From Vulcanimicrobiota bacterium (GTDB taxonomy: Bacteria > Vulcanimicrobiota > Xenobia > Xenobiales > JADMJV01), in contig JBFWNU010000005.1 of assembly GCA_050250895.1 (NCBI GenBank), forward strand, positions 32,001 through 96,000: a stretch of 64,000 bases of DNA, in the 5' to 3' direction. Shown here piece after piece: positions 36,996 to 40,878 of the stretch. The number at the start of each line of letters is the position of its first letter. Position 1 is the first letter of the stretch. The translations under genes and the position numbers were made by a program. Below the pieces are notes generated by a model. The model was not told where the DNA came from. It saw only the letters and a program-made list of their open reading frames with translations, and did not search any database.

Positions 36996-37237
36996 GGGCC
37001 GTGCTTCCAGGTTGGAAAGCGACTCCCTGGGCCAAATCATTAGGATTTCTTTAGAGGCTAGAGGGTGTTTTTGATCGTCGCCAACGCCACGCCGGCCTAT
37101 GCTGATGCCATGTTGGAGATCGTCATCGGACTGGCTATCCTTTTCCTCACGTTGGTTGCTCTAGCCTCGGCTCTGGCCGAGATCAAGGGAAACCGGCCGT
37201 CCTCTTGCGAACCATGGGGCTCGGAGGGACAAGCCGG

Positions 37238-37672
37238 ATGCAGCGAATCGAGCAATACCTTGACCTGATGCTTCACGTGCTCAGGGCCGACGGGGTCGTC
37301 GACCCGGCCGAGCGAGAGAAATTCATGGCTATCATGGTCGAAGGCTTGCAGCTTCGACCCGAACTGGTCGAACGTTACCGCAAGGCTCTGGAATGCTCGG
37401 ATTGGACCGAGGTCAGCGACGATGAGTTGGCGGCCCTGGGAGAGGGCCTCGAGCCTGGCTCCATCGCTCACATGGTCAAAGATGCCTATGCCATGGCCGA
37501 GGCTGACGGCAACTTCGATGTCAGCGAACTGGTCCTGGTGCGGCGTTTCCTCAAGGCGATCGGGATTCCCGAGACGCGCATGGAGGCTATCGACAACTGG
37601 GCCCGGGTGTCGCTCGAAGTGGCCCGCAAGGGCGAGCGCCTCTTTGTGCGGGTCCCTCAGGAGGCTCGCTAG
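37238..37672 (+). CDS. TerB-family protein
   Basis: ADGVVDPAE and ADGNFDVSE motifs; GGAGG RBS. Confidence 0.8.
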   Translation: MQRIEQYLDLMLHVLRADGVVDPAEREKFMAIMVEGLQLRPELVERYRKALECSDWTEVSDDELAALGEGLEPGSIAHMVKDAYAMAEADGNFDVSELVLVRRFLKAIGIPETRMEAIDNWARVSLEVARKGERLFVRVPQEAR

Positions 37673-37840
37673 ATGTCGGGGTTTTCGGCCTTTGCCGCTG
37701 CCTCGTTTCAGATGAAGAAGCTAGCCGAAGGGGCGGTGGCCTTCAGCTTCCACGAGCAAGCCGACGGGTTTGCCGAGAGTCTTGACGACGGCATCACTCT
37801 GAGCCCTCAGGCGCTGGCCTTCTTGCACGACGAGGAGTAA
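37673..37840 (+). CDS. 55-aa small protein (below the ORF-track cutoff)
   Basis: GGAGG RBS, ATG directly after the terB stop; MSGFSAFAAASFQMKKLAEG...DDGITLSPQALAFLHDEE*; followed by a hairpin. Confidence 0.5.
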   Translation: MSGFSAFAAASFQMKKLAEGAVAFSFHEQADGFAESLDDGITLSPQALAFLHDEE

Positions 37841-37842
37841 AG

Positions 37843-37985
37843 AAATTAGGCCGCCCGCAGGCGGCCTTCGCGAAGGTGGTGGGCCACCTTCCCCATTGTT
37901 GGAGCCGAGTTCGTCGGCTCACCCCTATCCCCGTGTTGGACTGAGGGCACAGCCTCAGTCTAAACGCTGTTTACAAAATTGTAAC
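37843..37985 (-). ncRNA. Candidate structured small RNA of unknown family
   Basis: Own sigma70 promoter, a series of hairpins, a terminal GC hairpin and no convincing ORF. Confidence 0.5.
37848..37867. terminator. Intrinsic terminator-like hairpin AGGCCGCC-N4-GGCGGCCT
   Basis: 8-bp stem between convergent units; followed by AATTTCTTT on the minus strand. Confidence 0.6.
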
Positions 37986-37991
37986 AAAGTG

Positions 37992-38020
37992 AGTATAGCA
38001 CATCGAGAAAAGGCGAGCAA
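37992..38020 (-). promoter_or_regulatory. sigma70 promoter TTGCTC-N17-TATACT with extended -10 TG
   Basis: Exact 17-nt spacer; points into the hairpin array. Confidence 0.65.
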
Positions 38021-38034
38021 CCGAGAGGTTTGGA

Positions 38035-38643
38035 CTAGTTCCTCATGCGGACCACGCCCTCGAGACGGACTCGTTCTTCATCGCTGCGACCGTAGCGTTG
38101 CTTGCGAGCATCGAGGGTCACCCTCAGCAGGGGTTCGTTGGTGGGCGGTTGGGAGTCTAGAAAGAAGGAGCAATCGTAGATGTCGGACGCCAGCCGGCGT
38201 CCGGCCGTGAGATACCCCGTGATGTTGGTCCCGGTGCTCGAGATAGGAGCGGCCGTGGTGGTGGGGGACGCCAGGGGGACCTCGCGACGAAGCACCTGCC
38301 GGGTGGCCGGGTCGTGATAGAGGACGACGTATTTCTGCCACAGTGGCTGGCCGGCCGCGTCCACCTGAAAGTCGGTGTCGTAGACGGCCGAGAGAAAAGC
38401 GACCGAGCCATTGTTGGGGCCAATCGTCACCGAGTCATAGACCGTCTGCTCGGCGTCGCGCGAGAAGCGGCTCAGCACCGCCTGGTTGGCGCGCACCAGA
38501 TCGGTGGCCGCGTTGGTGCGCATCAGGGCGTTGGAACCCAGGCGATAGATGGCGAAGATGGCAGCTGTCAGCAACCCGAGTAGACAGGCCGAGATGAGCA
38601 CCTCAGGCAAGGTGAAGGCCTTATGGGTAGAGGTAGGTTTCAA
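38035..38643 (-). CDS. Prepilin-type protein (PilW-like)
   Basis: KAFTLPEVLIS; FLSA and PLWQKYVVLY motifs shared with 59620..60399. Confidence 0.8.
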   Translation of the reverse strand: MKPTSTHKAFTLPEVLISACLLGLLTAAIFAIYRLGSNALMRTNAATDLVRANQAVLSRFSRDAEQTVYDSVTIGPNNGSVAFLSAVYDTDFQVDAAGQPLWQKYVVLYHDPATRQVLRREVPLASPTTTAAPISSTGTNITGYLTAGRRLASDIYDCSFFLDSQPPTNEPLLRVTLDARKQRYGRSDEERVRLEGVVRMRN

Positions 38644-39049
38644 GCTCGACCTTATGATTGCGTCCCCAGCGAATCTGGACCTGCACGGAACGGGGCGGAC
38701 TGATGGCTCCAACCACCGGCACGGTATCGGTGCGCACGATGATGTCGTAGCGCGTCCCATCGATGGTGGAGCTGGGGTAGGGCGTGGGAGGAAACCCGGT
38801 TCCAGCCGGTGGGGTCGGCACCGTGGCGCTGCCGTCAAAGAGGTTCTGGCCGGGCGGAATGGACGCGTAGCCCTGGGCTCGCGCCCGATCCAGCACCTGG
38901 CGGCCCAGCTCGCCGGCGGTGGCCAGCTGGGTCGACTGGGCGCTGAGCGTCACTCCGCCAAGAAAGACCTGGATAGTCCCCAGCAAAGCCACCGCCAGGA
39001 TCCCCAGGGCCACCACCACCTCCATGATGGTAAAGGCCCGTCGTCTCAC
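38621..39049 (-). CDS. Prepilin-type protein (PilV-like)
   Basis: RRAFTIMEVVVALGIL...VQVQIRW. Confidence 0.82.
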   Translation of the reverse strand: MRRRAFTIMEVVVALGILAVALLGTIQVFLGGVTLSAQSTQLATAGELGRQVLDRARAQGYASIPPGQNLFDGSATVPTPPAGTGFPPTPYPSSTIDGTRYDIIVRTDTVPVVGAISPPRSVQVQIRWGRNHKVELETYLYP

Positions 39050-40878
39050 TAGCGGGCCACCCAGGTGGTCACCGTCATGGGTCCGGTGGCCGCCTGCGAA
39101 GTGTCGTCGAAATAGGCCTTGTTGTAGGTGATGCTGGTGCCGCTATTCAGCAGAACGTCTCCGGGAGCCACCGTTTGGCCGTTGATGTCGACGGGCTGTT
39201 GCGAGCCGTCGTCGTTGGCGATGACCGCGCCCACAATGTTGACCTGATTGTCGGCATAGAAGTAGCCGTTGGTGTAGATCACTCCCTGGAAGTTCGAACT
39301 TCCCAGGCGACCGAAGCCAATCTGCTGATGGATGGAAAGCACCTGACCCCAGAGGTGGGCGTGGGTGGTGTACTGGTCGCCTACGCTGTCGAGCAGACCG
39401 GCGTGGGTGGAGGGGATGTCGGGATTGAAGTTGTTGAGGACATTGAGGTCTCCGCCCAGGTGGCTGCCGCCCCCTTTGAACAGGTCCGAGACATAGGTCA
39501 ACCGCTTGACCATGAACTGCTCGGTCGGACCGCTGCCAGCGGCGTTGACCACCGTGGCAATTTTTTCTAGCACGGCCTCGTCGCTACCGCCGAAGCCGGG
39601 CTGGCCGGTATTGAACGGCGCCAGAGTGCGCTGGATGTCGACCCGGCGGTCGCGCACGGTGGTGCCGAAGTCGGCCACCCCGTAGTTCTGCATATCGGTA
39701 TCGAGGGCGTCGAGAGCGGTCTTGGCCTGGTCCCACCAGAGGGACAACTGGGGATTGCCCTGAGCCGTGGCCAGGTCCTGGATGTATTGGTCTCCGTCGA
39801 AACCGGTGAGTTCGACGCTGCCCTTGCTGAAGATCGAGACCTTGCGATCGTTGTTGGTCACGATGGTGGCGTCACCGCGAAAGACGGTGGCCGGCTCGTC
39901 GGGGTCGGCGCCGTTCACGTAGAGCCCCCCATCGCCGGTGATCGACCCGTTGACGGTCACCTTGCCGTTGACATAGAGGGTGGCGCCGTTGAGCACCAGA
40001 TCGCCATTGACCAGCAGGTCTCCGTCATAGTAGAAGTCTTCCGGAGTGCCGCTGCCCAGAGTGGCTCCACCCACGGCGGGAACGGTGGCCGGCGTGGCCG
40101 TCTGTTTAGCCAGGATTTCCGCCTCGATGTCGACGGTGGGAAAGGGCTTGGCGCTGGCGTTGTTCTGGGTCGGCGGGCTGCCTCCGAGGGTGGCGCCGGT
40201 GAGGCTGATGCCCGAGGCCGCCACTGCACTGACCGTGCCGGCGATGGTAGCGGTGGTGCCGGGGTCCTGGGTCCACTTGATCAGGTCCGGGTCGCTACCG
40301 GCAAAGTTCGAGTGAATGCCCGCCGGTTCAGGGGTGGGATCGTCGAGGGCCCCGATGCCCTCGACGCGTACGTCTCCTCGCATGTGGACCCGGCCCGAGT
40401 TGAGCAGAGCCACGTCCACCTCGGGGCCTCCACCCCGCCGCACCAGCACCTCGACTACGCGCTCGACCGGGCCCACCCGGGCTACCACCACCAGATCGGC
40501 CACGCCCGGGGGTACGGTGCCGTCGCCCCGAGGGCCATTGACCACGGCCAGTCCGGCCAGGTTGTTGACCGACTCGTGCTTACCTACCGACTGGGTGTCG
40601 GCGTTGGTATTGAAGATCAGAGTGTAGCTGCCCCGGCCCCCCAACAACGTGGTCGAGTTGAACCCGCCCACCCAGGCCCGGTTGGCCTCGAGTTCGGCCA
40701 GGGCGTGAGCCACGCCCGCTTCGGCTGCGCCCAGCGCAGCCAGGCGGTCGGTGTGGCCTCTGGTCGTGAAGTTGCCCCCGGTGGCCCCGGCCACAATGGC
40801 CACGAGCATGATCATCAGCACCGTGGCGAATAAGAGCGCTGTAATGAGGGCGATGCCCCGCCGTGTCCCGTTCCCCAT
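39049..40878 (-). CDS. Large PilX-like protein with beta-rich C-terminus
   Basis: RRGIALITALL, ALGAAEAGVAHALAEL; TATTAT 6 nt before the ATG at 40878. Confidence 0.8.
   Translation of the reverse strand: MGNGTRRGIALITALLFATVLMIMLVAIVAGATGGNFTTRGHTDRLAALGAAEAGVAHALAELEANRAWVGGFNSTTLLGGRGSYTLIFNTNADTQSVGKHESVNNLAGLAVVNGPRGDGTVPPGVADLVVVARVGPVERVVEVLVRRGGGPEVDVALLNSGRVHMRGDVRVEGIGALDDPTPEPAGIHSNFAGSDPDLIKWTQDPGTTATIAGTVSAVAASGISLTGATLGGSPPTQNNASAKPFPTVDIEAEILAKQTATPATVPAVGGATLGSGTPEDFYYDGDLLVNGDLVLNGATLYVNGKVTVNGSITGDGGLYVNGADPDEPATVFRGDATIVTNNDRKVSIFSKGSVELTGFDGDQYIQDLATAQGNPQLSLWWDQAKTALDALDTDMQNYGVADFGTTVRDRRVDIQRTLAPFNTGQPGFGGSDEAVLEKIATVVNAAGSGPTEQFMVKRLTYVSDLFKGGGSHLGGDLNVLNNFNPDIPSTHAGLLDSVGDQYTTHAHLWGQVLSIHQQIGFGRLGSSNFQGVIYTNGYFYADNQVNIVGAVIANDDGSQQPVDINGQTVAPGDVLLNSGTSITYNKAYFDDTSQAATGPMTVTTWVAR

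Follow-up and report, generated by a model that had tools for sequence, protein, structure and literature searches.

A terminated, hairpin-rich gap behind a pilin-like operon in a Vulcanimicrobiota genome: a plausible orphan small RNA or structured 3′ tail

Here we describe a 194-nt gap between two convergent gene sets in the 9.5-Mb genome of a Vulcanimicrobiota bacterium (GenBank assembly GCA_050250895.1). The DNA under analysis, hereafter the window, is a stretch of 64,000 nt (contig JBFWNU010000005.1, positions 32,001 to 96,000 of the forward strand), and in its numbering the gap occupies 37841-38034. On one side a pilin-like operon on the minus strand ends at 38035, its last gene being listed as an open reading frame (ORF) at 38035..38838 with the stop codon at 38035-38037. 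On the other side a TerB-domain gene (37205-37672; Pfam TerB, E 4.2e-13) and a 55-aa partner ORF (37673-37840) converge on it along the plus strand. Packed into the gap are four perfect GC hairpins of 7-8 bp, together with a 17-nt repeated linker and a hairpin that carries a T-run. A previous inspection of the letters, here called the sequence-only reading, had proposed that a promoter, five hairpins and a terminator on the minus strand make up a small RNA (sRNA) just downstream of the pilin operon, and had judged a riboswitch unlikely because no gene follows on that strand. Its account of the setting holds: the pilin-like operon does end at the edge of the gap, the genes that come next are plus-strand genes running towards the element, and without a regulated same-strand gene downstream the layout is not that of a riboswitch or cis-acting leader. 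Our verdict is that an orphan sRNA, or a structured 3′ tail of the operon, is plausible.

Results

A one-sided terminator far behind the last pilin-like gene

Read along the minus strand, the gap closes with hairpin 5 (AGGCCGCC-TGCG-GGCGGCCT) followed by AATTTCTTT, the whole spanning 37839..37867 with the stem at 37848-37855 / 37860-37867. The stem consists of 8 pairs, 7 of them GC, around a 4-nt loop, which is the form of an intrinsic terminator, and the terminator that the sequence-only reading had drawn here was also listed on the minus strand by our terminator scan. How far such a site can be trusted depends on the genome in which it lies. When terminator-like sites were defined as a GC-rich perfect hairpin with 6 or more T within the 9 nt behind it, 455 of them stood in the proper orientation genome-wide and 47 in the wrong one, and this bias indicates that terminator-like sites in this genome are mostly real terminators. 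Hairpin 5, whose T-run is found on the minus strand only, is a genuine minus-strand intrinsic terminator and serves that strand only.

The position of this terminator is unusual. It lies 167 nt past the stop codon of the last pilin-like gene, and no earlier hairpin-plus-T site occurs between the two. For long ORFs the median distance from stop codon to terminator is 31.5 nt, and of 326 terminators 156 stand at 10-40 nt, whereas a distance of 130-200 nt is seen for just 12. A distance of 167 nt without an earlier terminator therefore suggests one of two things: an additional unit between the gene and the terminator, or an unusually long, structured 3′ untranslated region (3′UTR).

The second of these has a passive version, which we consider somewhat unlikely. 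The gap would then be an end region without any RNA function, composed of a terminator stack or insulator and a long 3′UTR of the pilin operon, with the AT-rich patch near the pilin-like stop codon, together with its motif, being a leftover promoter at a rearrangement junction. The locus does lie between converging genes; a hairpin stands 7 nt past the stop codon of the plus-strand operon; and, with no terminator from the pilin-like stop to hairpin 5, transcripts of the operon should read through. Such a reading must nevertheless accommodate a stop-to-terminator distance of a class to which so few of the long ORFs belong, as well as hairpins 2 to 4, which have no T-run on either strand.

Hairpins, linkers and predicted fold

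All strings quoted by the sequence-only reading are present on the minus strand, and its drawing needs correction in several places. Hairpin 1, given as TTACAA/TTGTAA, cannot form because its loop would be 2 nt, although a weak 5-bp stem with a 4-nt loop can form instead. Hairpin 2 (GACTGAGG-CTGTGC-CCTCAGTC, 37939..37960) is an inverted repeat of 8 perfect pairs that extends to 11 nt at 91%; in the predicted minus-strand fold its pair probability is just ~0.12 because CCCUC...GGGG pairings compete with it. Hairpin 3 (GAGCCGA-CGAAC-TCGGCTC, 37902-37908 / 37914-37920) and hairpin 4 (GAAGGTGG-CCCA-CCACCTTC, 37872-37879 / 37884-37891) are both perfect inverted repeats, predicted to pair with probabilities >0.9 and >0.98, and for hairpin 5 the value is again >0.9. 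Compared with shuffled sequences, the minus strand reaches a folding z of -4.82 and the plus strand one of -5.78, with 0 of 200 shuffles folding as well on either strand. Folding exceeds that of shuffles whichever candidate 5′ end is chosen (z -4.3 to -4.5).

Hairpins 2 and 3 are each followed by a copy of the linker, the first at 37928..37940 (TCCAACACGGGGA) and the second, which is predicted to be single-stranded, at 37890..37903 (TCCAACAATGGGGA). The two belong to a 17-nt direct repeat of 76% identity, and the repetition is modestly beyond chance: its local score is 20 against 15.0 +/- 2.1 for shuffled sequence, a value that 6 of 200 shuffles also reach.

At least four perfect hairpins fall within 140 nt at 12 loci of the genome, against 0.175 expected from random placement of the genome's 7,469 hairpins, and the other 11 of these loci are tandem hairpin arrays with GCTCC(C) linkers. 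One might therefore ask whether the gap holds a degenerate single copy of these arrays, that is, DNA resembling repetitive extragenic palindromes or bacterial interspersed mosaic elements (REP/BIME) and not an RNA gene. The architecture is shared, in that all 11 other clusters combine short GC hairpins with conserved purine- or pyrimidine-rich linkers. The letters are not. The best local score of the element against the arrays is 25, compared with 22.2 +/- 2.2 for shuffles, 12 of 100 of which reach it; short-word BLAST returned chance matches only; and the linker pattern TCCAACA-N1-2-GGGGA occurs 3 times genome-wide, 2 of them here, where 2.5 are expected. We regard this origin as highly improbable.

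The arrays deserve mention in their own right. They are tandem GC-hairpin arrays with GCTCC(C)/GGGAGC linkers, REP/BIME-like in appearance, in which a 73-nt unit may, for example, be repeated 6.3 times, and they account for nearly all hairpin clusters of the genome. In our numbering of this genome (G000, contig:position) they are found, outside the window, at C2:652868-657231, C2:581210, C6:49591, C9:179723, C1:2776122 and C1:3623651. A separate long tandem repeat, likewise outside the window, at G000:C1:3697390-3706744 contains several open frames and hairpins, with one TTACA-N4-TGTAA copy at its edge.

The GGA motifs of the linkers had been taken as a hint that the RNA binds CsrA/RsmA, so that a sponge would bind CsrA dimers and titrate them. 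There are points that favor this. The genome encodes csrA once, as a CsrA domain (75.5 bits) that opens a fusion protein of 395 aa. ACA and GGA are both part of the consensus selected for CsrA binding, and here two GGGGA tracts follow ACA. Known Csr/Rsm sponges, however, carry many GGA (ANGGA) motifs, mostly in hairpin loops, and the stretch 37843-37985 has only 2, both in linkers and none in the loops of the drawn hairpins, the first of them base-paired in the predicted fold; nor does any Csr/Rsm family of Rfam match, even at E <= 10. The csrA gene itself may also argue against a sponge, being fused to a histidine-kinase-like tail and located directly behind fliW-like and flgL-like genes. In the fliW-linked arrangement CsrA is antagonised by a protein and is not known to be antagonised by an RNA, and we know of no sRNA sponge in such a protein-antagonist setting. 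The CsrA proposal is thus not supported, and we give it scarcely any chance. At this locus (G000:C1:553815-556970, L069) the tail of the fusion is ~340 aa long, and CsrA-kinase fusions are unusual.

Promoter-like boxes and a leaderless reading frame

To judge a promoter in this genome, its own promoters have to serve as the standard. Among ORFs of at least 100 codons in G000, a TANNNT hexamer stands exactly 6 nt before ATG/GTG at 567 sites, against 124-212 at other spacings. The consensus derived from such promoters reads tTTcAGg (-27 to -21), tTTcAG (-16 to -11) and then GC-TAgaCT; leaderless promoters are common in G000, and the two T-rich/CAG boxes upstream are 11 nt apart. The promoter profile of the genome contains no TTGACA-like -35 signal. 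For that reason the -35 box of the sequence-only reading (TTGCTC, 38015..38020, minus strand), which agrees with TTGACA at 3 of 6 positions, carries no weight.

The other half of the proposed promoter fared better, as GC-TATACT agrees well with GC-TAgaCT, the -10 consensus of this genome. This first box, P1, has its hexamer at 37992..37997 and would place a start near G37985; its upstream-profile score of 1.76 falls in the top 3.8% of 59,338 TANNNT hexamers. A TACAAT box with TGT just before it follows at 37978-37983 (upstream score 1.74), and P2, the consensus -10 hexamer TAGACT, lies at 37957..37962. The gap has 4 TANNNT hexamers in total, every one of them on the minus strand, and two of these score in the genome's top 4%. 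As promoter evidence, this one-sided set of boxes is suggestive.

P2 also opens onto a frame that the sequence-only reading had missed. A 34-codon ORF on the minus strand (MPSVQHG...GRLRAA, 37846..37950) begins in the exact leaderless geometry TAGACT-GAGGCT-GTG. The gap could thus be a leaderless small-protein gene, started at GTG 37950 from the TAGACT promoter and encoding a 34-residue peptide whose TAA lies at the foot of the terminator. The hexamer is the consensus one, and the full-profile score of 1.65 corresponds to the 57th percentile of true leaderless sites. Among 25-70-codon ORFs located in gaps, a spacing of 6 is the highest class (126 against 59-110), and the indel-free alignment with a metagenomic relative described below fits a reading frame. 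These points are offset by others. ORFs of 30-49 codons show no excess of spacing 6 genome-wide, and the excess in gaps amounts to ~30 of the 126, so most such ORFs are chance occurrences. The upstream-only promoter score is ordinary, and three perfect hairpins, the terminator included, take up 59 of the 102 coding bases. The peptide is hydrophilic and has 0 matches at E <= 0.001 among 1.84 billion cluster representatives, itself included, in libraries that contain hardly any close relatives and from which short ORFs are often missing for want of a gene call; its own sequence being without a match, no gene caller had listed the ORF. We think a small protein unlikely.

A conserved DNA motif in the AT-rich patch

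As for the letters that had been drawn as hairpin 1, a DNA motif explains them better than an RNA hairpin does. They fall, together with the TACAAT box, within TGTTACA-ATTT-TGTAAACAG on the minus strand (37967..37986). The core TTACA-N4-TGTAA has 7 sites in the genome, 7 of 7 located between long ORFs, and the longer form TGTTACA-N4-TGTAAACAG is common to three: this one, C5:586831 and C6:153781. With 16 specified bases, three sites compare with ~0.0005 expected by arithmetic from base composition. In 16 genomes of the family we counted 48 motif sites against 12 for the reversed pattern, and in G000 itself 7 against 1; two relatives, G001 and G009, have 9 and 12. Counts alone say little, since a different palindrome with identical composition occurs anywhere from 0 to 13 times. 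In G001 and G009 the flanks are conserved as ATGTTACA-N4-TGTAAAC(T), and this asymmetric motif is located 16-113 nt upstream of genes of mixed function. We found no common function among the genes that adjoin motif sites, which include EF-hand, PTP-like phytase, PilZ and subtilase genes as well as genes for unknown proteins. Example loci in G000, beyond the two already named, are C8:207652, C2:660692, C1:2796501 and C1:3699407, and in G001 and G009 L127-L166. The two TGT-W-A half-sites are 11 nt apart, an arrangement that we take to resemble direct-repeat sites of the OmpR/PhoB type. The motif is probably the site of a regulator conserved in this family.

The distance of 8 nt from the motif core to a -10-like hexamer is the same here, with TAGACT, and at C6:153781, where the hexamer is TATACT and a gene follows. 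A candidate for a second unit of motif plus terminator, at C5:586831, was rejected, as a 162-aa minus-strand ORF occupies the space. Elsewhere in the order, three genomes belonging to another family have the motif as TTGTTACAATTTTGTAAA in front of a 69-aa ORF (L008, L012, L015).

Of importance for this locus is the direction in which the motif points. At 27 sites the side of the gene start was recorded, and it was TGTTACA at 11, TGTAAAC at 3, both at 3 and unclear at 9, the 27th being this locus. Here the TGTTACA side faces the pilin-like stop codon and the TGTAAAC side faces the hairpins. A motif acting in its usual orientation would drive transcription along the plus strand, giving an RNA antisense to the pilin-like gene at its 3′ end and leaving the hairpins as the terminator region of converging genes. 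The statistics favor such an arrangement, as 11 of the 14 one-sided sites have the gene start beside TGTTACA and that side points here along the plus strand into the pilin-like gene. What it lacks is a promoter and a product: the gap has no plus-strand TANNNT, the nearest candidate being TATAGC without the final T, and the plus-strand ORF found there is an unsupported antisense shadow frame. An antisense RNA is accordingly very unlikely. The atypical orientation would also be no surprise if the gap were a passive end region.

Homologs and conservation

No Rfam family reaches its gathering score anywhere in the window, and at E <= 10 the region 37700-38150 yields only chance matches to CRISPR repeats and small nucleolar RNAs. 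The element has a single copy, with one match in the whole genome and only chance or coding matches by short-word BLAST. The possibility of a dispersed repeat, which the sequence-only reading had itself named as fatal to its proposal, is not borne out, there being one genomic copy and no similarity to the hairpin arrays.

Apart from one close relative, the search for homologs found none. Among 60 relatives, including one other genome of the genus, blastn gave short chance matches and no homolog; two 40-nt matches, in G026 and G029, were discarded because they lie within Sel1-repeat coding DNA. A covariance model, for which the one sequence was used two times over, gave weak matches in the same 60 genomes, the best (G006, 26.9 bits) being inside a response-regulator ORF. 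A scan for the two-linker pattern across ~185,000 species found 39 loci, all of them tandem repeats in unrelated phyla and none beyond 13.9 bits with the covariance model, and a scan of JGI metagenomes with TerB produced no close relative. A literature search for small RNAs in Eremiobacterota listed no relevant paper. One relative was found, a metagenomic one that is ~90% identical and has the same gene order, its contigs coming from three bioreactor-sludge runs of a single study. Among the sequencing runs listed as containing the locus, none was of RNA.

We compared this relative by alignment totals, that is, by the differences and gaps at this region. Its record over 37154-40500 has 330 differences and 5 gaps, none of the latter in the gap between the genes, and over 37788-38282 it has 39 differences in 495 nt and no gap (~92% identity). 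The spacer at 37078-37154 serves as an internal control, as in the same relative it is replaced by 76 unlike letters; it lies between a DUF1697 gene and the TerB gene and is a fast-evolving divergent promoter region. That one intergenic region stays free of indels beside another that cannot be aligned argues for constraint of some kind on the gap. A leftover should drift, and the indel-free ~92% identity thus speaks against a passive end region.

A second comparison points the other way. In G001, a genome of the same genus, one contig carries the ortholog of the pilin-like gene (52% identity) and another the TerB pair (70%), and the DNA downstream of each is unrelated to this locus. The junction between the two gene sets is therefore lineage-specific, as a passive end region created by rearrangement would have it.

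Neighbouring genes

The last gene of the minus-strand operon encodes a product with a prepilin-type FTLPEV...hydrophobic segment (motif KAFTLPEVLIS), and the protein has 27 matches in its own genome; its neighbours give an N_methyl match and a weak PilX_N match in Pfam. The listed 267-aa ORF overlaps the preceding 142-aa gene by 218 nt (38621-38838, minus strand). Because of this overlap, the real start is probably near 38640, directly before the prepilin-type motif, and the gene may use a non-standard start codon. On the plus strand, the pair formed by the TerB gene and the 55-aa ORF is kept in G001, where the small protein is ~60% alike by eye; the 55-aa partner matches no Pfam family.

Discussion

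Taken together, we favor, with a probability of roughly 0.4, the reading that the gap is a lineage-specific, non-coding minus-strand unit, which would either give rise to an RNA of its own of ~105-145 nt or form the structured 3′ tail of the pilin-like operon and share its end. The observations behind it are the hairpins, the terminator with its orientation, the distance from the stop codon, the family of motif sites and the indel-free conservation in one relative. From the earlier proposal of a ~140-nt trans-acting RNA, this keeps what the terminator, the 167-nt distance, the minus-strand boxes and the indel-free gap support, and drops CsrA/RsmA.

The unit might work as follows. The AT-rich patch carries the stacked -10-like boxes TATACT, TACAAT and TAGACT and one copy of the motif, and RNA polymerase would start on the minus strand between 37985 and 37950. 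Two or three very stable GC hairpins would be transcribed before the polymerase stops at the hairpin-plus-U terminator (37867-37839), which would yield an RNA 105-145 nt or so in length. The likeliest contact surface, for pairing with a C/U-rich target or for a protein, would be the G-rich sequence CCAACA(N)GGGGA that occurs here twice, with the letters CCAACAAUGGGGA predicted to be single-stranded. A regulator bound at the DNA motif would gate the promoter. That the promoter fires, that a discrete RNA results and that this RNA has a function are steps that we infer.

Several results weigh against such a unit, and they concern the strand, the promoter and the history of the locus. Concerning the strand, the plus strand folds better than the minus, and since no stem departs from Watson-Crick pairing, folding gives no indication of which strand is transcribed. 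Concerning the promoter, the boxes of the gap are only moderate matches: the upstream score of TAGACT is -0.36, within the top 20% only, and a sigma-70 scan returned 0 promoter sites. The motif stands in its rarer orientation, with the hairpins on the TGTAAAC side, which counts against simply taking it as the operator of an sRNA promoter, and the TAGACT box meets the genome's 6-nt spacing exactly, as a leaderless gene would require. Concerning its history, the one close relative is the only homolog found, and synteny with the genome of the same genus breaks off at the locus, so that part of it could be leftover DNA.

A bolder form of the reading can be imagined, in which the gap encodes a small regulatory RNA, the first from a phylum that is mostly uncultured and hardly studied, expressed from a -35-less promoter gated by TGTTACA-N4-TGTAAAC, coupled to the pilin-like operon and possibly serving also as a leaderless mRNA for the 34-residue peptide. 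We hold this to be unlikely. If the RNA is real, it would provide a first entry point to regulation by RNA in a phylum where genetic work is almost lacking, and a natural reporter for the regulator whose motif lies upstream of at least 7 genes here and 9-12 in two relatives. If it is merely a structured tail of the operon, it is ordinary. Either way, two regularities are useful for annotating this lineage, namely the ~400 genes whose -10 box precedes the start codon by exactly 6 nt and the regular use of hairpin-plus-U terminators.

The comparison with known systems begins with terminators between converging genes, for which hairpin 5 and its T-run are a textbook case. The gap differs from these in that its terminator is one-sided and 167 nt away from the minus-strand stop codon, and in that three more perfect hairpins without T-runs precede it. 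With the REP/BIME-like arrays of the same genome the element shares short perfect GC hairpins and repeated linkers; unlike them, it is single-copy, consists of two units and has no significant similarity to any of them. With CsrB, RsmY and RsmZ it has in common several hairpins before a terminator and tracts that contain GGA, but with 2 GGA motifs, none in the drawn loops, without a covariance-model match and with a csrA that is fused and fliW-linked, the resemblance ends there. The leaderless genes of this genome have the same geometry as TAGACT-GAGGCT-GTG and the same consensus hexamer, whereas the frame here is 34 codons long, filled with hairpins and without relatives, and TTTGT replaces the TTTCAG boxes at the same two positions.

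The closest kind is presumably that of the 3′UTR-associated or Hfq-type sRNAs such as DapZ, MicL and CpxQ. The element, a predicted RNA, has no sequence or Rfam relation to these, and the promoters of this genome are largely leaderless and -35-less. What they share is the plan. The element follows immediately on an operon's last gene, at whose end promoter-like boxes stand; its body consists of stable hairpins and a single-stranded stretch, with a GC hairpin and U-run closing the 3′ side; and hfq is present in the genome.

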